Shown: positions 3,510 to 60,690 of the stretch, piece by piece | Layout of the letters: the number at the start of each line of letters is the position of its first letter | Numbering within the stretch: the first letter of the stretch is position 1 | NCBI RefSeq assembly: GCF_006345805.1 | Contig: NC_043000.1 | Span: 30,070,001 to 30,134,000 of the forward strand | Length of the DNA stretch: 64,000 bases | Reading direction: 5' to 3' | Origin: Octopus sinensis | Lineage: Eukaryota | Position numbers and translations under genes: made by a program | The notes under the pieces: model-generated | The model's input: only the letters and a program-made list of their open reading frames with translations | Told to the model about the DNA's origin: nothing | The model's database searches: none

Positions 3510-3680
3510 ATTTAAGAGATGAGGAATTATGTACATTATTTAAATTATTTACATTTGATATTTGTCCTTATTTTGTTTATTGTTAACACAACGTTTCGGC
3601 TGATAAAACTCTCAAGCCTTCATCAGGTGTCTTGGGGAAATTTCGAACCTGGGTTCTCATTCCTAAGGTATTTTTTTATG

Positions 3681-3683
<3 letters not shown>
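3510..3683 (-). mobile_element. Penelope pseudo-LTR (pLTR) copy carrying a hammerhead motif
   Basis: Homologous to 58657-58800 (3' end of the Penelope element) and, inverted, to 5922-6080. Confidence 0.8.
3585..3631 (-). ncRNA. Minimal type I hammerhead ribozyme motif
   Basis: Minus strand gacac-CTGATGA-A-GGCT..AGCC-GAAA-CGTT-gtgtt: intact core, stems I and II, palindromic ACGT stem III. Confidence 0.8.
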
Positions 3684-3730
<47 letters not shown>

Positions 3731-3746
3731 GTTATTGTTATTATTG

Positions 3747-5837: not shown

Positions 5838-5920
<83 letters not shown>

Positions 5921-5921
5921 C

Positions 5922-6080
5922 AACATCGAAAATTACCTTAGGTATGAGAACCCAGGTTCGAAATTTCCCCAAGACACCCGATAAATGCTGGAGGGTATAT
6001 CAGCCGAAATGTTGGGTTAACAAAAAAAAAAAAAAAAAATTGATGAGGACAAATATCCGGCAAATGTAAATGATGTTTAT
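5922..6080 (+). mobile_element. Penelope pLTR copy with decayed hammerhead (CCGATAA...GAAATGTT)
   Basis: Inverted homolog of 3510-3683. Confidence 0.75.
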
Positions 6081-6727
6081 AATAAAGTGTTGCAGACCGA
6101 AAATCGATAAAGCGAAAAGTGATACATTTATAGGAAATGCTGCGCTCATTTTTTTAAATACTTGTTGAAGTGACATCCTTTGATATGTATCACCCTACAA
6201 ACCTTGGAAGAAATATTATCTGTTTTTTGAATCCATATCAACTCAGATTTCGGAATTATCATATCACTCGGTCGGCGACATTGCACCTGGAAATTTAATG
6301 TAACACAACACCAGTTTAAGACTTTATTGACGAGATATTTGAATCCACTGTATTGAATTTAGCGTCAATAAACACCACAAATCTGTCAGTGGCTTCTCTC
6401 GTAGTTTATAGAATTGTGCTCTGTTAGTATATTTAACCCTTTTCCAATGTGAATATGTAAGGCATCGGATACTATTTCAGTTTACTTGATGCTTCCTGCG
6501 AATGAATGCATAGAACGAGAAAACACAAGAGAAACTGCCCAATATGTTACAGCCAATAACACAGCAGTACAAATTAAACTAAAGCTTTCAAATGCTTCTC
6601 ATAAAAGTTTGGAACGTTGAACTGTGGGAAATCACTGAAAATGCTTTTGGCTTCATATTTCTTGTAAGTCTCAATCGTAGATTTTATCTCTTTCGCAAAA
6701 TCATATGCGAATAATATATATCGTTTT

Positions 6728-10791: not shown

Positions 10792-10877
<86 letters not shown>

Positions 10878-10881
<4 letters not shown>

Positions 10882-11304
10882 ATACTAGGCATCTCAATAT
10901 GGCTAACCACTAAGGGTGGGTGTTACTGTAGCTTCTAGACCCATGAGAACATCGTCTCCAGCTGGCTTTGAGCACACTTTCTGTGCCCTTATGGTATTTT
11001 CAAAGGGAGGTCATTCCTCCCTCGTCAACCTAAGCGATACGCATGGACGGAAATTTCTAGGTATTGACCTGTCGTCGGCGTACGACAATCACCGGTTTTC
11101 GATGAAGGGATGTCCCAATGCAAATACTTTTATCGTTTTTCCAGTAACTTAGGTTGACGAGGGAGGGATGACCTCCCTTTGCAAATACCATAAGGGCACA
11201 GAAAGTGTGCCTAAAGCCAGCTGGAGACGATGTTCTCCTGGGGCTACAAGCTACAGTAACACCCACCCTTAGTGGTTAGCCATATTGAGATGGCTAGTAT
11301 ACCT
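10878..11304 (-). mobile_element. Foldback element: about 157-bp inverted arms around a decayed hammerhead motif
   Basis: 10878-11034 is the reverse complement of 11148-11304; minus strand 11038-11082 reads tacg-CCGACGA-c-AGGT..ACCT-a-GAAA...TG-cgta. Confidence 0.75.
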
Positions 11305-11349
11305 TACATTGTCGTGCAGTTTCTGTTTATATCTCGTTCAGATATTTAT

Positions 11350-11939: not shown

Positions 11940-12810
11940 ACACTTCTTTCCTTCTTTCTCTCTGATTCCTCAACCGACATTATCACATTATCCAGTAGAA
12001 TAAACACATAAGTCTATTTATAGAAACTTGACCATTCTTAGTAGTCTTCCCTTCTGTTTTGTGGTTTACTACTCACCTTTGAAACCCCTTCCTATTCCTA
12101 TACATTTTTCTCTATTCATCCTTTAATGCCATTCTAACATCACAACACCTCACAAACCTCACACCTATTCATTTCTTACATTATTATCTCTTCCTACAAC
12201 CACCTCATAATATCTTGACCACTCCTTTTTTTCACTTCCTTACATTTTTTCATTTTCTGTTCTTGTTTTCATTTTTCTTTCCTCTTTCTTTCCTTCTTCT
12301 TTTCTCACCTTTTCCTTTTACCTCTCTCTCTCTCTCTCTTCATTTTAACATACACATCTCTTCTCCCCTCTCTATCCACTTAACACTACCACTATATTCT
12401 CAAATGTTCATTTACACCACAAGACCCCTTTCAATGAACAGCATATGGAATCTACATCTCCACCCTTTCCATTTGTGATGACTAAATATGAATTCATATT
12501 GGAATTTACATACCACGGACAGGAAGCATTTCTACCACTTCTACACACCACTTTCCCTGGATAATGGAACTGCAACTGTAACATCTTTATACATATTTAT
12601 TTTAATTTCTACATTCATTCTCCTTATTTCCTTCCTTTTCCAAAATAACTCCTTATACTGAACTCTAATATTTCCCTCTATTTACCCATCTCACATCATC
12701 TCTGATGAAGGGATATCCCTAATATCCCAGAAGCAGTTGTAAGACTAACTTTCCCTTTATAAATCTCCTGAAAATTGCACACAGCCTTGACTTTGTTGTA
12801 TCAATTTATT
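11940..12810 (+). mobile_element. Pyrimidine-rich PLE-tail-like element ending in a hammerhead motif (12699-12744)
   Basis: tct-CTGATGA-a-GGGATAT..ATATCCC-a-GAAG-cagttg-TA-aga; homologous to 36175-36830 on the minus strand. Confidence 0.65.
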
Positions 12811-12844
<34 letters not shown>

Positions 12845-17258: not shown

Positions 17259-18660
17259 GGACTCTTTCTCCTAGATACCTTCGGTAAGACATTCCCTAAC
17301 GTACATTTCACCATCTACAAAGATGATGCCCTCGCCTTAACAGCTAATACAAATGGACCAGCACAAGATCGTTTTAGGAAGGATATTATCCAGTTAATGA
17401 AACACTTCGGACTTAGTATAACTATAGACACTAACCTGACGGTTGTCAATTTCTTAGACGTTTCCTTAGATCTTAATAATAATATTATAAGCCTTATAGG
17501 AAGCCCAATGATAGACTAAGTTATATTAATGTAGGTTCATGCCATCCCCCTATAGTATTCAAAAATTTAGTTAAAAATATTAGTAAGAGGATTTCTAGCC
17601 TCTCATCTAATGAGGACATCTTCAATAGCGTTGCCCCAGTTTATAATAAAGCTTTAAAAGATAGTGGTTTTAGCGAAAAAAAAAATATACACCTATCACC
17701 AGCCCACAATAAGGAAAAGGAATAATAGAAATAGGAAGGTCATCTGGTTTACGCCCCCTATTCACCCGAGGTGGCCTTCAATATAGGTAAATATTTCCTA
17801 GCACTGATAGATAGACTTTTCCAGTTAACCATGCTTATAGGAAACTCTTCAATAGACACAATTTAAAATTAGTTTTAGTTCAACTACCAATTTTAAAAAC
17901 ATAATCAATCATAACATACAAAAAACACAAGAAGAAAACAGCTGTTCATGCAGGAATAAAGAATTGTGCCCGCTAAATGGAGCTTGCATGTCCAAGACCA
18001 TCATATATGAAGCTACCGTAAACTCTATAACCACTAAAGACACCGTTTCGACGAAGAAATACGTGGGCCTGACAGAGGGTAATTTCAAGGCCAGGTTCAA
18101 TAACCACACTTTGAGCTTTAGGCACAGGAACAAAAGAAAAGCGACACAATTATCCAATCATATTTGGTCTTTAAGAGATAAAGGTGTCGATTATAACATA
18201 CAATGGATTATAACATACACTAACGGCAGCGGAAGGTGCGGTTTATGCGACATGGAGAGATGGCTTATCTGGAAAAGCAGCTTAGACCCTACCACATGTC
18301 TAAATACAAGGACAGAGCTTTTCGGATCATGCCCACATGTGACTAAATTTCTGTTACGTTTTTGGTCCCCTAAAGAAAACGGATAGAACATGCTTTCTGT
18401 GTTATGCCCCAAAAAGTTTTATATATTTTTATATATTTTATATATTTTTATGTATTTTATATAATTTTTATGACGAAAAATGCGAGCGAGTATAAGTACG
18501 CAGGCAAAGCAGAGTTATAACAGAGTAATTTCCCTTCATTTTTAACGGTATTTTTTCATAACGTTTTCAAATAGCCAGATACCCGAAGAGATGGTGTTGT
18601 GGATTTCCACTTCGGCATCTGAAACTCAGAGTTTTATCTTGACTACCGAGTAATGTAACA
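17259..18660 (+). mobile_element. 5'-truncated Penelope-like element (Naiad-type): RT C-terminus + GIY-YIG endonuclease + 3' hammerhead motif
   Basis: Reads IYKDDAL, VNFLDVSLDL, KPND..YINV.S.HPP (frameshifted), then CSC..CPLNGAC..IIYEA..YVGLTEGNFKARFNNH; decayed HHR CCGAAGA..GAAA at 18577-18639; (TA)n on both sides. Confidence 0.85.
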
Positions 18661-21500: not shown

Positions 21501-21836
21501 TAATATATATATATATATATGTATATATCATAGAAGAAAATTGAGAAATCTGCGTAAGGTGGAAGTAAACGTTTCGAAAGAGCAACTAAACATCCTCCCC
21601 TCCACAATACCACATGAACCAACAGCTCAGCAAGAGGTGCAGACGAAGGCAGCCGACTGAAATTCACTTTTACACCAACGGCTGAGACAATGGCACGTAT
21701 AGGAGTGATGTGAAATACTTCAGACTGAGGAAATCAGGAAGACCACGGAAGTGATCCACTTGACCGCAGCGGCATGTCTGAAACGAGTAGGAGTGGCTAT
21801 GTGGTAAGTAGCTTGCTTACCAATCACATAGTTCCG

Positions 21837-21936: not shown

Positions 21937-22773
21937 CAATAGAGGAGAGTTACAGGAAGATAGCTACTTGCAGTAGCAAAATCTTTCCGTGCATGTCCTC
22001 TCCACACACGCTCACACACACGCATATTGGCAACATTCGTCATTTTCTTGAAAATGGGCTCCTAAACCCGAAATATTTATTGCAAGGTAAGTCTACATTA
22101 ATTCACATATTTCTTTTCCAGGGATTTGCCTTGCATTTACTTTGAATTGTTTTGGCCTTGCGCACAATTCTTTATGCAATATTTTATTTGAATTTACTGT
22201 ATTCCTTTTTTGAATTCACTTTTTATTCCTTGTCCCCGTTCATTTAATTGCATCCCATATATGGTACTTCTAGTATTTGAAAAAAGTGAAGTTTGCTGAA
22301 TACATATATTGTCTGTGTCTATATAATGAAGTTATTTGTTATTTACAATAGTCGAGTGTTTTAAGTTGTCATGTAAAGTACTAATGCTTTAATACGTTCG
22401 TTATGTTACAACATCGTTATATTTATTTGTGTATATGTATTTTTATATGTATACTTATGTATATATGCCTGACAAACAATGTGTAGTTCTTATATAACTA
22501 AAATAGATAACAAAACAACTGTCAATAAGTGGAATAAACAGATATTTTCCTATTTCTCTTATCTGATCAATTCTATAATAAATTTCAACTGTCGTGATTC
22601 GCGAATTTTCAGAACGACTGTGAGGTTATATTAGACATAGGTTACATATATATATATATGTGTGTGTGTGTGTGTATGTGTGTGTGTATGTGTTGTGTGT
22701 GTGTGTGCGCGTGAGTGTGAGTTTGTGTGTTGTGTGGGTGTGTGTGTTGTGTGGTGTGTGTGGGGTGTGGTGT

Positions 22774-22968
22774 GTGACGCGTGTGTATCGTTGGCGATTT
22801 TTTCCTCCGTCTTCCCTTCCTTGGACCTTTCCTTTTCTATGTTTCTGACGAAGAGCTCCGCTCGAAACGTTAAACCTCCTTTCTTTCCTTTCCTGAGGTC
22901 CACTAACACTATACTTGTTCCATGTCCTCATGTTGTGTTGTTTTCTCTTTGTGTTTTCATGTTTGAAT

Positions 22969-22973
<5 letters not shown>
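22774..22973 (+). mobile_element. About 200-bp non-coding element with a minimal hammerhead (22841-22875)
   Basis: gttt-CTGACGA-A-GAGC-tcc-GCTC-GAAA-CGTT-aaac; second copy at 30449-30656. Confidence 0.8.
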
Positions 22974-23011
<38 letters not shown>

Positions 23012-23311
23012 ATATATATATAGTTGGAATTTTTAAAAAATTAACAAAGAAAAGAAAAGACGAAGAGGTGTGTAAACAATAAGCAGATGTATTAGTTTAA
23101 CGCTCGGAAAGGGAGAAAAGTCTTTTACATTTCGAGCTTACGCTATATATATATATATATATATCTCAGTGAAGAAAGCGACTCACCATACTTTTAAAGC
23201 CTGGTACGTTATCGGTTTCTCTTGCCAAACCGCTATATCATGAGGACATAAACAAGCCAAGACCGGTTGTCAAGTGATAGACATACGCTTGCACACGTAT
23301 ACATACACACA

Positions 23312-23374
<63 letters not shown>

Positions 23375-23389
23375 GCGCACACACATAAC

Positions 23390-23489
23390 AATTAACAGAA
23401 TGAGATAAAAATCCAAGGCTATGAAAGATTTCAGAACATCTATAAATAGGTCTTTCACAGCCTCGGATTTTTATCTCATTCTGTTAATT
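23390..23489. repeat. 39-bp inverted repeat with 22-nt spacer
   Basis: aattaacagaatgagataaaaatccaaggctatgaaaga and its reverse complement, 2 mismatches. Confidence 0.9.
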
Positions 23490-23764
23490 TTTTTTATACA
23501 CATGCTGATATATGACCTACGTTGGACTCCTCATTCGCATAATCACCGAACCTGGAGCTTAACTATAGTCTGTCCATAGCACTTACTCAGCATTGCCTGA
23601 CACTTTTGGGTCTTTCTGACACCATTACCTCTCATAACCTCTCTCTCTCCCCTCTCTTTCTTTCTTTCTCCCTCTTTCTCTCACTCTCTCTCTCTCTCTC
23701 TCTCTTTATATATATATATATGTGTATCATATGAAATAAAAAACAGAACACAAAGGATATCGCG

Positions 23765-27732: not shown

Positions 27733-28384
27733 CTTAGATATATCTTATCTTTTATATATTTCAGTCTCTGCGCCGCGGCCATCCTGAGGCACTGCTTGAA
27801 TAGTTTTCCGTCGAGCCTGTTTCATGCTTGATTTAAAAACCATTACATTATCTACCCCGGTGTTTGGCTGAACCGCTGGATTACATTGAAGTATGCAATA
27901 CCTGTTGTGAAACGTTGGAAGTATACACACATGAGATGCATGTATTTATCCATATAAATATATATGGCATCGAGTCGTTTTAGTTAAGCGTTCGGTATCT
28001 AGTTCTGGAAATTATGTTTTCGAAACGACAGACTATGCAGACAATCTTGCAGATATTTGCGTGTTCATATACGTAAATATTAACAAATGAAATCAATGGT
28101 ACATGGGTAATCGTTTTTTATTTTGTATATTTTCATTTGTATTGCTTATTTTTACATTTTAGTTTTTTGGCTGAGATTTTTCTTGAGAACTCATTCTTCG
28201 TGGTAATGGCGATTTGGCGTCTATGTTTAGCATATAGGCTGTCCACTTTAGTGGTCATTCCTCTAAATTTTGTATGTAACACAATTTTTAATCTTCGGAT
28301 TTTTTAAGTATGCTAAGCGACTGGTTTTAATTGATTAATATCAATTTCTACCCTTATTTATAATATATATATATATATATATAT

Positions 28385-29972
28385 ATTATATTATATTAGA
28401 GATAAAACCACCATTAGGCAAATCAAACAGTGAAAAACATAAGCAATACATAATATTAATTAAAAATATAAAAGTTAAAAATTAAAAAATTATTTAAATA
28501 ATTAAACTTATAAATTTTAAATATATATATACAAATATATATATATAATATATATATATATATTATATATATATATAATATATAATATATATATATGTAT
28601 GTATATTTTTTTTATTTATATATTATTTTATTTATTAATTAATTAATTTTTTTTTTTTTTATTTTTAATATATAAATATCAAAAGTATAAAGTTTAATAA
28701 AAGATACAGAGTAAAACACTACGATCGTTTCATGGCTGTACCAATTCGAATAACAATAATTTTAATTCAATTAATAACTCGAATTATGGTTACAGTCAAT
28801 CTTCAGGTTAATTGAAATATTTTTAAAATAATCAGAAATATTTAAACAATATTTTAAAGATATAAATAATATAATAATTTTACTTATAATAAACTCTATT
28901 AACAAACTAGAAACTTAAAACTTAACAATTATGATTATATCAAAATCGATTTTATGTTAAATATTAATTTTAATTTATAAGGTAAGAAACCCACCAATAA
29001 TCTAATATCGTTAATAGTCTATATTTAATTACATAAAGATTTTTTTTTCAATGACTATTATATATAAATTATTAATGAAAATATATAAATCTATATAAAT
29101 ATTATAATTAAGATCTAAAATAATCTCTATAAATAAATATATATGCACATATAATAAAGACCTAATAAATTAACTTTTCATATTTAAAGATGAAATAGCT
29201 AATTTCAAAAATACAAACAAACAAACTTAAACGAACTTTCGGAAATCTAATTTAAAATACTTATAGAAATAATCAATTCGTAGTTATATAGTATCGAATA
29301 AATACTATAAATACTATAAATATATTTATCAATGGGAATAACTAGCCAATATCAATTTAAAAAGACAATAACTAAGTTATGCTATTAAGTTAGACATGGC
29401 CTGTACCAATCTTTGGTCGAAACATATCTAAGTTTAACAAATTTTAATTATAAGAAATTTAAAACTACAATTAATACTATTAATACATGTATATACAAAA
29501 ACCTAACTTTAGACAACTCTTATAATTGCTATCAAACAACAAATCTATTGCTAAGTAATATCTTACGAATAAACTTAAATTTAATATCTAATAATATAGA
29601 AAATTACGATAATTAAATCATTACATAAACAACGATATTTACATAAGAAAAATATTATTACACCAAACACTTATAAAATATTAAAATTTACAATTTAAAG
29701 ATCTTAAATATAAATAAATACTTATCTTAGCGAGGTTTTGTAAATATTTCTGATTATTTTAAAATATTTCAATTAACCTGAAGATTGACAGTAACCATAA
29801 CTCGAATTATTAATTGAATTTAAATTATTGTTATTCGAATTGGTACAGCCATGAAACGATCGTAGTGTTTTACTCTGTATCTTTTATTAAATTTTACTAC
29901 TTTTGATATTTATATATTAAAAAAAAAATTAATTAATAAATAAAATAATATATAAATATATTATATATATAT

Positions 29973-30030
<58 letters not shown>

Positions 30031-30205
30031 TTGTATATAAATATTTGTATATATATATATTTAAAATTTATAAGTTTAAATTATTTAAATAATTTTTTAA
30101 TTTTTAACTTTTATATTTTTAAATTAATTTTATGTATTGGCTTATGTTTTTCACTGTTTGATTTGCCTAATGGTGGTTTTATCTCTAATTTAATATAATA
30201 TAATA
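28385..30205. mobile_element. 1.8-kb AT-rich foldback element with about 460-bp inverted arms, each holding a hammerhead motif
   Basis: 28385-28844 vs 29741-30205; HHRs at 28718-28808 (-) and 29776-29866 (+): CTGAAGA-long stem II-GAAA-CGATCG-TA. Confidence 0.8.
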
Positions 30206-30296
30206 TAATATATTTATAATATAAAATTGGATTTAATCATAAATCAAATTTTTCCTGTAAGTTTGGATTTATTCCCTAATTATTATTATTATTAAT

Positions 30297-30330
<34 letters not shown>

Positions 30331-30448
30331 ATATATATATAATATATATATATATATTATATATATATATATATATATATTATATTCTATATATATATAT
30401 AATATATATATATATATACATATCTATATATAATATATATACATAAAA

Positions 30449-30656
30449 AGTTAATCCAATATGAAAACACAAAAAGAAAACACAACAACGCGAGGACGTG
30501 GAACAAATATAGTATTATTGGACGCTCAAGAAGGAAGGGAAGAAGGAGGGTTTAACGTTTCGAACGGAGCTCTTCGTCAGAAACATAGGAAAAGGAAAGA
30601 TCCAGAGAAGGGAAGACGGAGGGAAAAAAATCGCCAACGGTACACACGCGGTCACA
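30449..30656 (-). mobile_element. Second copy of the 200-bp minimal-hammerhead element (HHR 30550-30584)
   Basis: Minus strand gttt-CTGACGA-A-GAGC-tcc-GTTC-GAAA-CGTT-aaac. Confidence 0.8.
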
Positions 30657-35621: not shown

Positions 35622-36174
35622 TGTATTGTATATATTTTTATTATTTTTATAATTTTCATATATTTCTTTTATTATAAATGCAAAACAACACCACGGAAGA
35701 ATCGACGTAAGCTTAAATAATAAACCGCGATATGTGAACCGCGATAGATGAACCGCGATATGGCGAGAGATTACTATACGTTATCTTTTATACTTTTATA
35801 CGCGAGTGAAATTTTGCTACTATTTCTATAATGTTGCGCAACGACACATCAGTTTTACTCTGTTTAAATGTGATTTTGTGGAAGCACTCGGTAATATTAA
35901 AGACATTAAGAACTAGATAATGCATGGTTCTTAGAGGACTTTCTGGAGACATTTCAAAATTTCGCATAAAATATGAATCTCATTGATAAACCACTGCCAC
36001 AGATTCTAGTCTCCCACTGCTATAAATCTCAACATTCAAAATTCTTAAAATATTTCAATAGAAAGAAGCCAATATATGAACACGTTTCTTTTCAAATGTA
36101 TATATGTGTGTGTGCGTGTATACATACATAATACATAAATATGTATAGGTGTGTGCGTGCGTGTGTTAATTAAA

Positions 36175-36830
36175 AGGAGACAATAAAACCAAGACCGTGT
36201 GGAATTTTCTGGACATTTATAAAGTGAAAGTAAGTCTTACAACTGTTTCTGGGATGTTAGGGATATCTCTTTATCAGAGAGGTTAAATAGAGGGAAATAT
36301 TAGAGTTCAGTATAAGTAGTTATTTTCTAAAAGGATGGATATAGGGAGTATAAAGGGAAATAAGAAAATAAAAATGAAAGTAAAAATATATGTAGGATAG
36401 TATAGTTGCAGTTGCATTATCTAAGGAAAGTGCTGTGTAGAATGGGTAGAAATGCTTCTTGTTCATGGTATGTAGAATCCGATAGGAGTTCATATTTTGT
36501 TATTACAAGTGGATAGTATTTAGACATAAATTCCATGTGCTGTTCATTGAAAGGGATCCTGTGGTGTGAATGAAATTTTGAGAATGTATTGGTGGGGGTG
36601 AGTAGATAAAGAGAAGAGGATAGATATGTATGTTAGGAGGAGAATGGTATTAGTCAAAAGGAATAGGGGAGGAAAGAAGAAAGAAAGAAAAAGGAGGATA
36701 AATGAGCAAAGGAGTGATAGATGGTAATGAAGATATAGTGAGGGGGATGGGAGAAGAGAACTATCAGGATAAAAGGAACCGGGGAGGGATAGAAGGAAGA
36801 GATAAGAATGTAAGGAAGGAATACACACTG
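36175..36830 (-). mobile_element. Homolog of 11940-12810 with hammerhead motif (36235-36280)
   Basis: Minus strand tct-CTGATAA-agagatatccctaacatccca-GAAA-cagttg-TA-aga. Confidence 0.65.
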
Positions 36831-36840
36831 TAACAACTCT

Positions 36841-37510
36841 GAATATACGAGCGCCCAACGTATACACAGCTCCAATATCGAACCATATACTTTAGACCAT
36901 AACGGAAACCCAACCAATCCTACTAACACTAAGCAGAATGCTACTACCCTAACTTTCACCACAATTACAGATAGGATAAATAACCACGATAGAAATAGCA
37001 AAGATATTTGTAATAATAATGTTAATAACATAGAGCAATCTACCTCCATCTCTGACCTCTCCTTAGACAGTATTACTTCCGCCGTTCCTGAAAATAATCC
37101 CCACAATGCACTACCATGTAATTGCCGCCCCGGTACCATTTGCCCTCTACAAACCCGTTGTAGATGGTCTCACGTAAATTACAAATGCACCGTTTTCAAC
37201 ACGCTGCACAATTCTACAACCATAGTTATTGGGTCAACTATAAATTTTAAACAGCGATACGCTACGCATCTCGGTTCTTTTAGATATGAGAAGCACAGTA
37301 ATTCCACAGCACTCGCCAGTCACATACACCATCTCAGAAATAGGGAAACTCCATCTAACTTGTCATAGTGCATAATAGATTCAGGACTTCTATAGCAGGA
37401 TTAATGCTTAGCCTATAAGTTATGCCTAAAAGAAGCATTTCACGTACTAAAACACAAATCTTCAATACTACTAAAGTATAATGAGGCCCTGGGTACGTGC
37501 AAACACCTGT
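36841..37510 (+). pseudogene. Naiad-type PLE GIY-YIG endonuclease remnant (absent from the ORF track)
   Basis: Manual translation: PCNCRPGTICPLQTRC..VNYKCTV..VIGSTINFKQRYATHLGSFRYEKHSNSTALASHI...KLCLKEAF...ALGTCKH; three in-frame stops in the 3' half. Confidence 0.8.
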
Positions 37511-37930
37511 TTTCATAGCTTCAAATTTTACCACAAATCTAAATGCAGCTTAAACCAGCACACAGTACATATACCGACCCCCCCCTTAGGTAACACCCAA
37601 CAACCTTATTTGATTTTCCAATGTCTTATTTCTTTATTTTTTCAATTCTAATTTTAATCTTTTAATTGTTTAATAATACGTATTGAAACATGTATGTGTA
37701 TATATATATCTATATGTGTGTGCCCATTGGGTGCCCTGTTATTTTAATATATATTTATATTCGATTTTTATTTGACTGATTGGAGTGCTTATGCATTATA
37801 CCTTTCAAAATATCTCTCCTTTCGCTTCGATGTTGCCCAAGCACTTCCAGTTGCAGTACTATTTTTAGTTTTGCTCTTAGGTTTAACGAAATTGCCTTTC
37901 GGTTTAACGAAGTTATAAAATTATCCTCTC

Positions 37931-38011
<81 letters not shown>

Positions 38012-44996: not shown

Positions 44997-46030
44997 CTTT
45001 GAATATAACGATTAAAAAATATGTAACCAAATTGTTAATTGACGCAACCAAATACTTCAAACAATGGGTTTCTTGAAACTGTACTCGTCAGAAGATTTTT
45101 TCCACGTCAGTGATTTTTCCCTTTTTGTTTTGTTTTCTGCTTAAACAGAATCTAGAGATAGTGTATTCTTACTGTTTATGAAAGCGAATTTTAATACGAG
45201 CTTCGACTTATACCATCACAAATATATATGGTTGTGTCATGTGATTCACTTGATTTGGTAGCCAATTAATTTCAAAATAATTTTGATTAGTACTCAAGAA
45301 TTTCGAAATCTAATTTAATTGTGTAATCTAATGATCATAAAAGAAACTAATACATCGAATCATTTGTTGTCTTGGGAGTACTGGACTTTAGCATTGCCAA
45401 TTAAAGACATCCATCTTAAACAAATAAATTAAAAGAAAATCACCGAATATAATATAATAAATTCTATAATATAAATATATATAAATAATATTATAAATTA
45501 TATAATTTAAATATAAATATATATAAATATATACAAATATGAATATATATATATATATAATAAAGAAATGTATCCTTGTGATGATGTAGCTATCAATGAC
45601 GAAAGTGAAGATAACGATGAAGGCGAAGTGGACGACGACAGCAATTAAGAAGATGACGATCCTAAATATAAGCACGGAGCGGGAATCGGAAAGAAGTTGC
45701 ACTTTTGTTTCACCAGCAGTTTTACTGTGTCTACGACATTTTGCCTATAAACCAAAGATAACGATAACGATGAGATGTTGATTAATAAACAAAGATTAAA
45801 AGATGATAAATAGCTAATGATTAAATGTAATTTTTCAAGAAATATAATAGAGTTTAAAAAACGATGTAAATAATTCTTTCAAAATTTGAAAGAAGGCGAG
45901 AAATTCCTTGGGGACGAGGACGTTGATTAAACCGATAAGCATTTTGTCCGATACACTAAAGATTCCGTCCGTTTGTCGCCTTTAGAATTGTAAATAATTC
46001 TTTCCACTAAAGGCATTAGACCTGAAATTT

Positions 46031-46400
46031 TTCAGGGTGGGGCTAGTCGATTACTTTTTTCAGGGTGGGGCTAGTCGATTTCATATTTCAGGATGGGGCT
46101 AGTCGATTTCTTATTTCAGGGTGGGGCTGGTCGATTACTTATTTCAGGGTGGGGCTAGTCGATTTCTTAATTCAGGGTGGGGCTAGTCGATTACTTATTT
46201 CAGGGTGGGACTAGTCGATATCTTATTTCAGGGTGGGGCTAGTCGATTTCTTATTTGAGGGCGAGGTAGTCGATTTCTTATTTGAGGGTGGGGCTAGTCG
46301 CTTTTTTATTTGAGGGTGGGGATAGTCGATTACTTATTTCAGGATGGGGCTAGTCGAGTTCATATTTCAGGGTGTGGCTAGTCAATTACTTATTTCAGGA
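46031..46400. repeat. 28-bp minisatellite (about 13 units) inside a family A SINE
   Basis: Unit TTCAGGGTGGGGCTAGTCGATT(T/A)CTTAT; flanks 45995-46030 and 46400-46560 are SINE A. Confidence 0.9.
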
Positions 46401-47068
46401 TTACAACGACCCCAGCTCTCAGCTGGTACGTATTTCATCGAGCAAGGAGGATGATCGACACAGTCAACCTCGGTGACATTTGAATTCTGAACGCAAAAAG
46501 CAGAAAGAAATGCGGTTAGCCATTTTGTTCCACGCGCTAACGAATTTGCCGGCTCACTGACTCGAACGATATAAATAACAGCAACAATTTTATCGTTTTC
46601 TGACGGATCGAGTTGACATCATATCAGGTTATCGCTTAAATGTTCACATACTCAACTCAACATTATGAAACTTTAATTATCAATTTAGTTATTAAGCCGT
46701 GCTAGACAGAGTTTTAATTAACTGGAAGTAGGTTTAATTATTTCAAATACGTTCAAACTAAAATAACTTCAATACAAGCGGCGGTTAAGGAAAATATGAT
46801 GTTTGGCTTATTTTATTATTTGGAGAAGCAAGGCCGACAACTCAAAGCATTGCGGCTTCAGTTGCCGCCTGCGAGTATGCAGTCTACATCACTGCGAATG
46901 CGGTGATAACTGAATTTTTATATGGAAAGTTCCCAAAATGATATGGCTTGTCACGAGATTACACGATTAATTCATAAGATTATTAAGTGACATTGACCAT
47001 TCATTAATATTCAAATATATGCGGTGTGTCTACGTACACACATATATGCACATATATGTAAGCATTAG

Positions 47069-47109
<41 letters not shown>

Positions 47110-47260
47110 TGTGTGTGTGTGTCCTTATATGTTATATGTTTATATAAATACATATATAAATTTAAAATGAGGGTGAGAAATTACATATTAATTTAATTAA
47201 CATCAATTTAACAGCAGAGGTCTACCAAATTAAAATCTGAAGGTTCAGTAAATTGAATTA

Positions 47261-47704
47261 TATGCATATGAGAGGGATGACCACTATGTGAACAACCCTT
47301 ATGCTAGAAGTAGATCCGCTATGGTCTTACCACTAGAAATGTTCTCAAGAAAAATTTAGCAAACACCAAAATTTATGCGAGCAAGACAAATGAAAAATAA
47401 TCACAAGTGTAACAGGTAGAACTAGATACATGTCCGACCTCGTGCGGACGTCCTCGTGTATAGTTCTGCAAATTATATTTGTATTGATGGTAACACTGAA
47501 GATCTACGGACAAATTGCGTAAGTAAAATTACGTAATCTGTTAATAGTGAAACATGTATGTAATTAATCTATATTTTTGTTACTTTTCCTTTGTCTTGCT
47601 CGCTTACGTTTGGGTGTTTGCTAAATCTTTCTTGAGAATATTTCTTAGTGGTAAGACCATGGCGGATCTACTTCTAGCATAGTGGCCATCCCTCTCATAT
47701 GTAT
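47261..47704 (+). mobile_element. Foldback element: 130-145-bp inverted arms around a hammerhead (47491-47563)
   Basis: 47261-47405 vs 47577-47704; taaca-CTGAAGA-t-CTA..TAG-t-GAAA-CATG-TA-tgtaa. Confidence 0.8.
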
Positions 47705-47707
47705 GTG

Positions 47708-47751
<44 letters not shown>

Positions 47752-48190
47752 ATATACATTTAAGCCCGTCGAGGGCTTACATCCCGCAATATCATATTAT
47801 TTCCTTTAGTCAATACACTGTCATCGCTTATAAGCTTTTAAGCTTATAAAATGTTATTTACGGAATATATATATATATATAAATATATCTGTGCGTGTGT
47901 GTATAAATATTAGATCGTCATCTTCGTCGTCTTCGCCTTCATCGTTATCTTCACTTTCATCATGGATAGCTTCATCATCACAAGAATACATTTTATTATT
48001 ATGTTTATGTACATGTCCAACCAAAAGAGTACACCGTCCAGTAAGAGATAAATATGATTTAATGTACGCACTACAAAACTAAGAACTACTTATAGTTTCT
48101 TGCTGTGAAGACACGTTCTTAAAACTTGAGAAGCCACATGTCTTCACAACAATCTATAAGTCTAATCTTTATACTCTGTGTATATTAACT

Positions 48191-54307: not shown

Positions 54308-54341
<34 letters not shown>

Positions 54342-54345
<4 letters not shown>

Positions 54346-54776
54346 GAGGGTACTACTATTCATAGATACCGCACGCTAGGAGGGACCCTTGCGGTCAAAA
54401 CTACTAAAATAAACAAATTGTACCGAATGCAAAACTTGAAAGCAAGTCATTTAAAAAAAGAATTTAGTTACATATCACCTGTGATTTCGCAATTAATGCA
54501 GAATATGCATTCTATGCTCATCAGTGCAACAAACTCAAGACATATAAGAAAAAGCATAACATTACAAACCCGACAGCCAACCGTAGAATTCGTCGTAGCA
54601 TGTACGAATGTTTATCTCTACATATCTATGAAAATGGCGGGCTTATTCGCAATGCATTTCGGGATAAATGACTAGCTTTGAAGTTTTGCATTCGGTACAC
54701 TTTGTTTATTTTAGTAGTTTTGACCGCAAGGGTCCCTCCTAGTGTGCGGTATCTATGAATAGTAGTACGCTCTATA
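54342..54776 (-). mobile_element. Foldback element: about 112-bp inverted arms around a canonical hammerhead
   Basis: 54342-54453 vs 54665-54776; TA-rich flanks. Confidence 0.85.
54467..54530 (-). ncRNA. Type I hammerhead ribozyme, intact-looking
   Basis: GTTGCA-CTGATGA-GCA tag AATGCA tattc TGCATT aat TGC-GAAA-TCAC ag GTGA-TA-TGTAAC; all core positions and three stems present. Confidence 0.9.
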
Positions 54777-55166
54777 TAATATAATTAAATATTTTCAAAA
54801 TGGAAAAATTTACGGATTTTTTCTCTTACGAGGTTTTTCACGCTAACTACTGATAATTTCTTATAAATATTTTATCCTCAATTTTAAATATATATATAAT
54901 ATATATATTGTATAAAAGGGCTTAGTAAAATAAATTACTTTGCCACATACTGAACTCTTTTAGTAAAATAAATTACTTTGCCAGTAATTACTTTACTATA
55001 TATATATTACTACATATAGACATGAATGCATGCGCTCTTACTTACATTCATACATACATACATACATACATACATACATACATACATACATACATACATA
55101 CATACATACATACATGAATACATATGTATAGCAGTCTATCTGTCTCTGAATCTATCTATCTATATA

Positions 55167-58656: not shown

Positions 58657-60690
58657 TATTATTTACGTTCGACGTATATTTGTCCTCATCTTGTTTTTTA
58701 ACACAACATTTCGGCTAATATACACTCCAGCCTTCTACAGGTGCCTTGAGGAAATTTCGAACCTGGATTCTCATTTCTAAGGTATTTTTCGATGTTATAA
58801 TTATTGCTCAGGTCACTGCCTGGAATCGAGCTCGGAATGTTGTGGTAAGTAGCCTGTGCTCTTAACCACTACGCCATATGTTCGTGAGTGTTATGTTATG
58901 GAGTGGATTTTAGGGCTTATAAATATAATGTTTTCCAATCCTTCCTTAATACGGGTTCCTATATGCTATTCATATCTGAACTCGGTCTGTTTAGGAGGTT
59001 GTTGTGTCCTAGCATATGCGCTGCTTCTGTTAGTTTTCGTATTTTCCAGTGGTGTTCTCTGTCTATTATTTTAACTTCATCCCACAGGGGGAAGTGGTCT
59101 CCATTTTTCCATACATGATCAGCTATACCCGATGTCACAGCGTTGCGATGTTCGTCTACCCTTATTTTGAGGGGGCGGTATGTTTCGCCTTTGTATAACC
59201 TACCACAGCTGCATGGGATGGAGTACACGCAGTCTTTGGTCATATCCTCTTCTATTGGTGGTTTTACTCTTGAATACTGTCCTGATATCCTATGGGCCGC
59301 ATATCTTTTGTATCTTTTCGGAGAGGCCTTTCACATAGTGTAGACAGACTGTGGACAGTTTTTTGACCTCAACCTCTCTCTTCTTCATAATTAGAGTGGA
59401 TAGTATACTTTGGGGGGGTAGTTGTTGCTTAACAGATCGTTATTGAGCTTGATCATTTCTTCGTGGTGTGTATCACGATTGCTACTTATATTCTTTACTC
59501 GATGTTTTAGGCACTGAGCAATCCCTCTCTTTACACAGTATAGATGGTGGGAATTGAAGCTGAGGTATCGTCCAGTGAAGGTCGGCTTGCAGTATATGGA
59601 TGTCCTGAATCCATACTTGGTCCGTATTATTAATACGTCCAGGAATGCCAACTGATTGGCTTTTTCCTTTTTTCCATTGTGAACTGCATAGATGGCTTTA
59701 TTGAGTTCACATGATCTAACAGCACTTGGACATCTTCCTGGTGGAGCCAGAGTATAAAGGTGACATCAACATATCGCAGCCCCATTATGGAACTGTTTAC
59801 ATATTTGGGACACTTCTGCTGTCACACACACACACACACACATATCCTAGATCATATTTCAACGTTGCTCACACAGTTGTGTGTGTGTGTGAGACAGCAG
59901 CCCCACCCCGGGTATGTGAGCAGTACTGCAATATGGTGTGCAATGCCTCTGTGTTTGTATGACATCAAATTTGTTAATTCTACCGTAATCCCTTAGGAGA
60001 GGCTGGTATGCATAAAACCATCCTGTCTGGACTTTGTGCCCCAGAGGGCAACTTTCTAGGTGCAATACCAAAGGGGCTCTTTACCCTTCACCTTTATTAA
60101 AGCTGGAGAGTGTGTTATTTAGTTTGTTGTTTGTAAAGGACTGCACAAAGTAAGGGAAGCAGTTGTAGTAACCAAAATCACAAGATGCTATTCACTGTTG
60201 GTTCTAGTGGTGTTGATCCTAAAGCCAAATTCTCAAAGTATTCCATGTATATATTGGCTATTATCGGTGATAATGGCGAACTCATAGCTAAACCTTCTCC
60301 CTGTCGATATATATCAATATCCATACTGAAGTAGGTAGTTTCTACACAGAAGGTCAACATTTCCATCAAGTTTCTTATCGGAATACTAGTGCGTTCTTTT
60401 TGATGGGTGTATGTCACTAGTTTTTCTTGAATCACCGAAAGGGCTTCAGAAGTTGGGACTTCCATGAACAGACTTATCACATCTAGACTCAGCATCTGGT
60501 TGGATTCAATGGGTATATCCTTGATCATCAATTTTGTGATATGGGTGGAATCCTTCACTACAATGTTGACTTTCCTGCTAATAGACTGATTACATCCAGA
60601 AGGAAGCGGCTCAGTGGATGACATGCTGAACCTCTACAGCTCACTATAGGTCTTAATGGAATATCCGTCAAATGTAAATAATGTAAATAT
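58657..60690 (-). mobile_element. Penelope/Poseidon-type retroelement, 5'-truncated: RT + GIY-YIG + pLTR, interrupted by an insertion at about 59760-60190
   Basis: IPLRPIVS, SLDVISLFMEVP, GLAMSSPLSPIIANIYME, FLDVLI, KPTFTGRYLSFNSHH, CVYSIPCSCGRLYKGET.RPLKIRVDEH; pLTR with decayed HHR at 58700-58745. Confidence 0.9.
58808..58878 (-). promoter_or_regulatory. tRNA-like Pol III unit (A and B boxes) between GIY-YIG and pLTR
   Basis: Minus strand TGGCGTAGTGGTTAAGAGC...GAGCTCGATTCCAGG. Confidence 0.6.

Follow-up and report, generated by a model that had tools for sequence, protein, structure and literature searches.

What is a hammerhead ribozyme motif doing inside a short inverted repeat, and how did such a structure arise? 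The question is raised by positions 47261-47704 of the window (the whole 64-kb stretch of Octopus sinensis DNA that was analyzed), where the original prediction placed a foldback element with a plus-strand hammerhead. A foldback element with a hammerhead motif is indeed present there. The parts of this element, referred to here as the focal element, and of its right flank are as follows.

47261-47704, hammerhead motif on plus strand: focal foldback element, 444 bases, non-coding, an inverted repeat around the motif
47261-47403, minus strand: left arm, an inverted copy of the tail, matching the right arm at 113/125 aligned bases
47404-47481, no strand: imperfect inner hairpin at the inversion junction (loop 47437-47444; MFE pair probability 0.86-1.0)
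47486-47569, plus strand: type I hammerhead motif (stem I strands 47486-47495 and 47559-47569)
47496-47502, plus strand: first catalytic box C3-A9, exact match
47503-47548, plus strand: extended stem II of 46 nt with a basal U.U (from the fold and the pair table)
47549-47558, plus strand: G12-A14, 6-base palindromic stem III and predicted cleavage nucleotide A47558
47579-47704, plus strand: right arm, the 3' tail, 126 bases, with a pyrimidine-rich terminus and then TA-rich sequence
47710-47756, no strand: (TA)n run, the likely target microsatellite, on the right side of the element only

The motif is a type I hammerhead with an extended stem II

The motif has the boxes CUGANGA and GAAA, the pair A15.1-U16.1, an H17 residue and the order of a type I hammerhead. 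In particular, GAA occupies 47549-47551, the ACAUGU palindrome that was originally assigned to stem III occupies 47552-47557, and H17 is A47558; motif placement thus predicts cleavage after 47558, the same position as had been proposed. The extended stem II was also found with the inner hairpin claimed for it (47515-47522/47529-47536), which formed with a pair probability of 0.93-1.0 in five of five folding contexts. [quoted passage not shown] The claim of an intact core held for the first box and the GAA but not for the base of stem II, where positions 10.1 and 11.1 are U.U rather than the Watson-Crick G-C of the canonical consensus. Because U.U at these positions is a published natural variant, it counts against the word canonical and not against the word hammerhead. 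Stem I is weak, with nine possible pairs whose probability is 0.2-0.3 in the motif alone and approximately 0 in the whole-element ensemble; forcing it costs 1.3-3.1 kcal/mol. Stem III cannot close within a single molecule (intramolecular probability 0).

The weakness of stem I and the AT-rich sequence would be expected if the hammerhead match had arisen by chance within an ordinary inverted duplication, as would the failure of Rfam to report any hammerhead in the whole window at the gathering threshold, or in 47200-47760 at E values up to 10 (where 15 weak matches, nearly all of them on the TA run, were returned). However, a descriptor scan identified four strict type I motifs in the window when compared to a mean of 0.03 and a maximum of 1 in 200 block-shuffled windows, a test that is somewhat lenient to the focal motif because the descriptor was written after that motif had been seen. 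(Note that Rfam likewise missed the remaining three descriptor motifs.) Also against chance are the covariation in a second copy and the sharing of the core form with Hydra-clade motifs listed in print, both described below, and we consider a chance match extremely improbable.

The tail is repeated in inverted orientation upstream

That the tail behind the hammerhead recurs in inverted form upstream was borne out by the arms placed above. A 15-nt segment of the left arm is absent from the right arm and present in the second copy, that at 28 kb (three-way alignments). The ends of the focal element differ over a few TA-rich bases only, as compared with the optional 30-40 base end extension of Penelope-like elements. 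With respect to the (TA)n sequence said to flank the unit, the right-hand run lies 5 bases from the element, whereas the left flank holds only two 4-base TA/AT bits; note that runs of this kind have 4% of the 64-kb window within 10 nt of them. No target duplication is visible beyond TA at the ends, the longest stop-free frame in the element is 52 codons, and neither self-comparison nor a profile search of the window found a direct, head-to-tail repeat of the unit.

The element folds strongly as a whole (z = -22), and none of 200 shuffles folded as well as the inner hairpin (-30.3 kcal/mol), a feature absent from the original prediction. Compared with the outer arms, the inner stem has diverged further (mismatches 9/32 versus 12/125; Fisher p = 0.016), and each of its strands matches the 5' part of the 28 kb copy at a level reached by 0 of 2000 shuffles.

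It might be supposed that the entire two-armed hairpin is the RNA that is copied, in the manner of a rod-shaped retrozyme, with the arms inherited together under a pairing constraint. Consistent with this idea, the predicted fold of the plus strand is the more stable one (-226.3 overall and -26.3 for the inner part, versus -213.6 and -17.0 for the minus strand), and animal retrozymes are described as deriving from Penelope-like repeats (bioRxiv 10.64898/2026.07.22.740005). But the element has a single ribozyme and no tandem repeat, so that no unit-length circle can be excised, and mismatches in the arms have no strand bias (5 favor the plus strand, 3 the minus strand and 4 neither). We regard the copying of the hairpin as a unit as highly unlikely. 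(A G.U strand bias in the arms, considered as a mark of RNA selection or editing, was rejected because none was seen; the G.U bias of the inner stem, 5 versus 1, was not significant at p = 0.11.)

Other repeats lie close by. The element lies between two copies, in opposite orientation, of a purine-rich repeat (45545-45638 and 47921-48014) that would encode acidic residues; a TA run adjoins each copy. The pair was considered as part of the element and set aside, being a separate repeat. Directly to the right of the element, two small perfect hairpins occupy a short stretch between two (TA)n runs (47760-47865).

A second, diverged family member lies at 28 kb

A BLAST comparison with the focal element (E = 5e-11; local score 60 versus a shuffle maximum of 32) identified the following locus, which the original prediction did not mention.

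27986-28275, plus strand: second, diverged family member with the direct arm only and a hammerhead with core changes U4 and G8

This copy consists of a 5' segment, the ribozyme region and the tail, in that order, with no inverted arm upstream and no (TA)n beside its 3' end. Its start corresponds approximately to the apex of the inner hairpin in the focal element, and this suggests that the 5' boundary is fixed. Its hammerhead, the core of which was placed by eye as the best of five candidates, has intact stems, including a four-pair stem III of Hydra type that is one base off that listed for Hydra-1_Obim in File S2 of PMC8557442. Retained in it are the U.U, an inner hairpin that includes G.U and a spacer of similar length (44, versus 46 in the focal element), and the first five positions of stem I all pair, three of them through changes on both sides. 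(Alignment of the ribozyme part alone gave only 4/1000.) A profile built from three sequences found nothing else in the window below E = 2. Family-level conservation, proposed originally as a check, therefore takes a mixed form at these two loci: the stems covary in the one further copy, and the core there is decayed.

The single-armed copy bears on whether the focal element is instead a miniature inverted-repeat DNA transposon (MITE) that inserted at TA, captured a passenger hammerhead and moves by cut-and-paste. The focal element has terminal inverted repeats, and these are long; it is moreover small, lacks an ORF and has TA at both ends, all as a MITE would. The 28 kb copy, however, is without the left arm and yet keeps the ribozyme region and tail, making one of the two known loci single-armed. 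Furthermore, what serves as the arm follows immediately 3' of a Hydra-type ribozyme, the place of the 3' ends of Penelope-like elements, no target duplication is visible except TA, and three families (two of them described below) would each need to have captured a hammerhead 11-21 bases inside one arm. A MITE is thus very unlikely.

The element is probably of Hydra-type Penelope-like origin

The window is rich in repeats and contains microsatellites together with fragments of reverse-transcriptase and GIY-YIG genes; for one of the reverse-transcriptase fragments the best species-named match was to Argonauta hians, at 61% identity. The Hydra CxCx5C linker is present in two of the three endonuclease fragments checked. 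Two remnants are of Hydra type.

17259-18660 (coding 17259-18356): Hydra-type reverse-transcriptase and GIY-YIG remnant, with a decayed long-stem hammerhead (18583-18633) and then (TA)n at its 3' end
36149-37940 (endonuclease 37117-37506): Hydra-type endonuclease remnant that ends beside (TA)n and adjoins an oppositely oriented repeat shared with 12269-12830

Penelope-like elements, to which the original prediction had tied the foldback, are reported to make up 6.83% of the O. vulgaris genome (PMC13282606 supplement), and that tie is supported by the U.U core form, the tail length and the Hydra-type coding remnants. Of the Hydra-clade motifs listed in File S2 of PMC8557442, 14 of 26 have U directly after A9 and directly before GAAA, as compared with 0 of 8 listed for Chlamys/PLE-X. 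(The count was made by hand, and two of the 14 rows are identical motifs.) The focal cut site is approximately 140 bases from the element end, within the spread of the listed Hydra-clade families. According to the same source, (TA)n is the target of nearly all Hydra-clade elements, an inverted 5' copy is present in Penelope-13_HM, and Hydra-1_Obim exists in Octopus bimaculoides. The U.U form, the likely (TA)n target, the tail length and the remnants in the window are why we sharpen the assignment to the Hydra clade. As a counterpoint, U.U also occurs outside the clade, in the axolotl hammerhead HHR_Amex2 (PMC7229834). On balance, these sequence features make a Hydra-type origin for the focal element likely.

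The likeness to Hydra-clade elements as described in PMC8557442 extends to a type I hammerhead near the 3' end, the likely target, the occurrence in Octopus and the inverted 5' copy. There are also differences. Stem II comprises 46 nt, whereas all listed Hydra rows have short single hairpins; stem III is a loopless 6-base palindrome, unlike in those rows; and the ribozyme lies outside the inverted arm, whereas in Penelope-13_HM it is found on both strands. Moreover, unlike those elements, the focal element has no ORF. Lacking any frame for a reverse transcriptase, linker or GIY-YIG domain, it is not an autonomous member of the clade.

Neither local alignment to 12 regions nor global alignment to 8 tails identified an autonomous partner with the focal tail in the window; among the 12 regions, only the 28 kb copy was clearly similar to the focal element. 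The 37 kb coding remnant was considered as a partner on the strength of a common 14-base word and a similar terminus, and was rejected as not significant (1/300 by local alignment, as one of 12 targets, and 27-160 of 500 by global alignment). Neither by eye nor by three 10-base words did the tail match the consensus of Hydra-1_Obim or Naiad_Ovul; Naiad 'half-core' elements of Octopus were likewise set aside as partners, with no tail likeness by eye or word search. A pyrimidine-rich 3' terminus before (TA)n was rejected as a general signature (13/282 flanks versus a background of 7.7%, no enrichment). (A distant blastn search of a phage collection gave no match, a tRNA scan gave 0 genes, and a bacterial promoter scan, whose model is not relevant to a eukaryote, gave 4 sites versus 5.2 expected.)

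Further hammerhead repeats occur in the window. Three copies of one repeat carry a hammerhead (3535-3745, 5859-6083 and 58658-58805; intact at 3626, minus strand), and the one at 58658-58805 sits just downstream of a coding remnant of Penelope-like type (58959-60633).

Two further foldbacks in the window have a similar layout

Three other inverted structures with hammerheads are listed below.

54337-54782, minus-strand hammerhead, intact: foldback, 446 bases, arms matching at 113/119, (TA)n at the ends
10876-11309, minus-strand hammerhead, decayed: foldback, 434 bases, arms matching at 152/162, (TG)n run on the left
28357-30225, one hammerhead in each arm (core at 28806 on the minus strand and at 29778 on the plus strand): large inverted repeat, 68-base stem II with U.U at the base

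The first two are ORF-poor, and each has one hammerhead motif outside the arms. At 54337-54782 the core is at 54524, with G-C at 10.1-11.1 and a cut predicted after 54473; at 10876-11309 the decayed core lies near 11078 and was placed by eye. In all three foldbacks, the focal element included (444, 434 and 446 bases), the cut site is 11-21 bases before the start of an arm. The original prediction described the same architecture with no similarity of sequence. The layout is indeed common to the focal element and the two other foldbacks, and there is no clear sequence similarity among the three, but the statement requires qualification: the 28 kb copy is similar to the focal element, and the tail of 54337-54782 is a borderline match to the focal tail (its score was reached by 0/500 plain shuffles, and by 88 and 10 of 2000 block shuffles), one that a focal-tail profile search did not find. 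An inner hairpin common to all three was rejected, because the spacers of the two others fold no better than shuffles (60 and 34 of 200).

The 28357-30225 repeat, with a very AT-rich interior, has the two-ribozyme arm form that is already in print. Published precedents likewise exist for the ribozyme type, for U.U, for an inverted end and for TA as a target. In the literature covered, outside of which lay Repbase, Dfam and most subscription papers, no description was found of compact foldbacks that share one size and keep the ribozyme out of their arms, or of a Hydra-type motif whose stem II has 46 bases; the supplements of bioRxiv 10.64898/2026.07.22.740005 may list families related to the compact foldbacks.

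Elsewhere in the window, hammerhead-like boxes with a 48-base spacer at 21715-21800 adjoin a 100-base N gap and failed the stem filters, and a short foldback at 23387-23492 (arms matching at 40/46), in which no hammerhead was seen, lies beside a (CA)n run.

A model in which the element is copied in trans

We slightly favor the view that the focal element is an ORF-less, non-autonomous derivative of the Hydra clade that was copied in trans into a TA-rich microsatellite and whose ribozyme is predicted to cut mainly as a dimer. Whether it is mobile as its own short unit we judge to be an even call. Penelope-like elements insert by endonuclease-primed reverse transcription (PMC3846280, PMC8557442, PMC11167929), and their insertions often leave a shorter inverted copy, the junction palindrome having been read as self-priming (PMC3846280). 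In our model the reverse transcriptase and endonuclease of a Hydra-type partner would mobilize the element. First, a plus-strand RNA comprising the hairpin, ribozyme and tail would be primed at its 3' tail on nicked TA-rich DNA. Second, the end of the cDNA would fold back at the inner hairpin and recopy the tail, passing over the folded ribozyme, and the insert would as a result bear the tail end at both of its ends; in this exact form the fold-back step is doubtful. Third, the inverted arm would end approximately 20 bases short of the cut site, and because it stops there the ribozyme would remain free to fold. Fourth, cleavage, weak in a single copy, may be aided by pairing with another copy at the palindromic stem III, or by a protein of the element. 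We infer every one of these steps from what is directly visible, namely the arms, the inner hairpin, the motif, the second member and the lack of a long ORF.

The shorter inverted repeat in head-to-head orientation with a palindrome at the junction resembles Penelope structures of Adineta vaga (PMC3846280). Unlike the focal element, those described there flank an ORF or captured DNA and have target duplications of 8-10 bases.

The principal competing account is that the element is a dead-end by-product of an autonomous Hydra-clade element and not a mobile family of its own, having arisen either through extreme 5' truncation with inversion or as a solo plus an inverted pseudo-LTR left by recombination that removed the ORF. 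Penelope-like elements routinely have pseudo-LTRs that are inverted and shorter, with palindromes at the junctions (PMC3846280, PMC8557442), most of the hammerheads of these elements are described as scattered single motifs (PMC4209133), the 28 kb copy has one arm, and the host lineage has an abundance of such elements, as the O. vulgaris figure above indicates. On the other hand, a by-product would not lead one to expect three mutually dissimilar elements of near-equal size and layout, and a single event does not predict an inner stem more diverged than the arms. That both copies of the focal family begin at about the same point also argues against truncation, although the solo pseudo-LTR version explains this observation equally well. 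We think it somewhat unlikely that the focal element is such a by-product.

A bolder extension of the trans-copying model is that the foldbacks form a distinct octopod class of non-autonomous Penelope-like elements, about 440 bases long and MITE-looking, in which reverse transcription would turn around at the long-stemmed ribozyme and the junction upstream of it, and in which every insertion would rebuild the arm from the tail of the element and end it short of the ribozyme in all cases, keeping it active. We consider this rather improbable.

The ribozyme is predicted to cut mainly as a dimer

Closing stem III as the one pair available to a monomer costs 5.7 kcal/mol. A predicted double-hammerhead dimer (-32.2) is slightly favored over two free monomers (-30.4), but a non-catalytic dimer (-37.4) is predicted to lie below it by 5 kcal/mol, and low activity is therefore predicted for the focal ribozyme unless it is helped. 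Cleavage after A47558 is predicted to occur mainly in the dimer. For the ribozyme fold to be imposed on the real element takes 3.1 kcal/mol, as against approximately 100 in a hypothetical full palindrome. Two other arrangements were considered and rejected: a switch in which the left strand of the inner hairpin blocks the cleavage site (a register 9 kcal/mol above the minimum, probability 0), and an intramolecular double hammerhead to which the left ACAUGU would contribute one half (neither a core nor a stem I surrounds this ACAUGU).

Published ribozymes give some guide. HHR_Amex2, which has the same U.U at the base of stem II as the focal motif, reaches 22% cleavage in an hour and does far better in dimeric form (PMC7229834), and an anole ribozyme needed its protein, with cleavage by the hammerhead of the anole element not required for insertion in vitro (PMC11167929). 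The focal motif also resembles the minimal hammerheads described in pseudo-LTRs (Cervera and de la Pena 2014, PMC4209133), which are type I with a palindromic stem III, are predicted to act as dimers and occur mostly as solitary copies. In the consensus given there, however, A9 is followed by an additional base and G10.1 pairs with C11.1 where the focal motif has U.U, and the paired motifs on opposite strands place a ribozyme in both arms, as opposed to one arm in the focal element. Similarly, non-LTR retrozymes (PMC7229834; bioRxiv 10.64898/2026.07.22.740005) are described as short, non-coding and type I and as coming from Penelope-like repeats, but they are tandem direct repeats that yield circular RNA, whereas the focal element is a single inverted-repeat unit.

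Implications for inverted ends and for hammerhead counts

How Penelope-like elements form inverted ends and what role their hammerheads play are stated to be open questions (PMC8557442, PMC11167929). An ORF-less unit with only a junction hairpin, a ribozyme and a tail marks the minimal cis parts and, if the reading as a distinct class were true, such short units would be substrates with which to test both inverted-end formation and the purpose of the ribozyme. If, instead, the element is a relic of truncation, it is ordinary repeat debris in a type of genome rich in Penelope-like elements. Because long-stemmed U.U motifs escape Rfam, such motifs are likely undercounted, and the elements that carry them may be misfiled as MITEs. 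Cephalopods exhibit extensive A-to-I editing, and a hairpin RNA of 125 pairs would be a substrate for editing or silencing.

Two minor observations concern other repeats of the window. A two-copy family at 22773-23022 and 30390-30656 carries a minimal hammerhead that is small and canonical, with its core at 22845 (plus strand) and 30580 (minus strand), and a short GC-rich unit forms a tandem array at 46027-46401.
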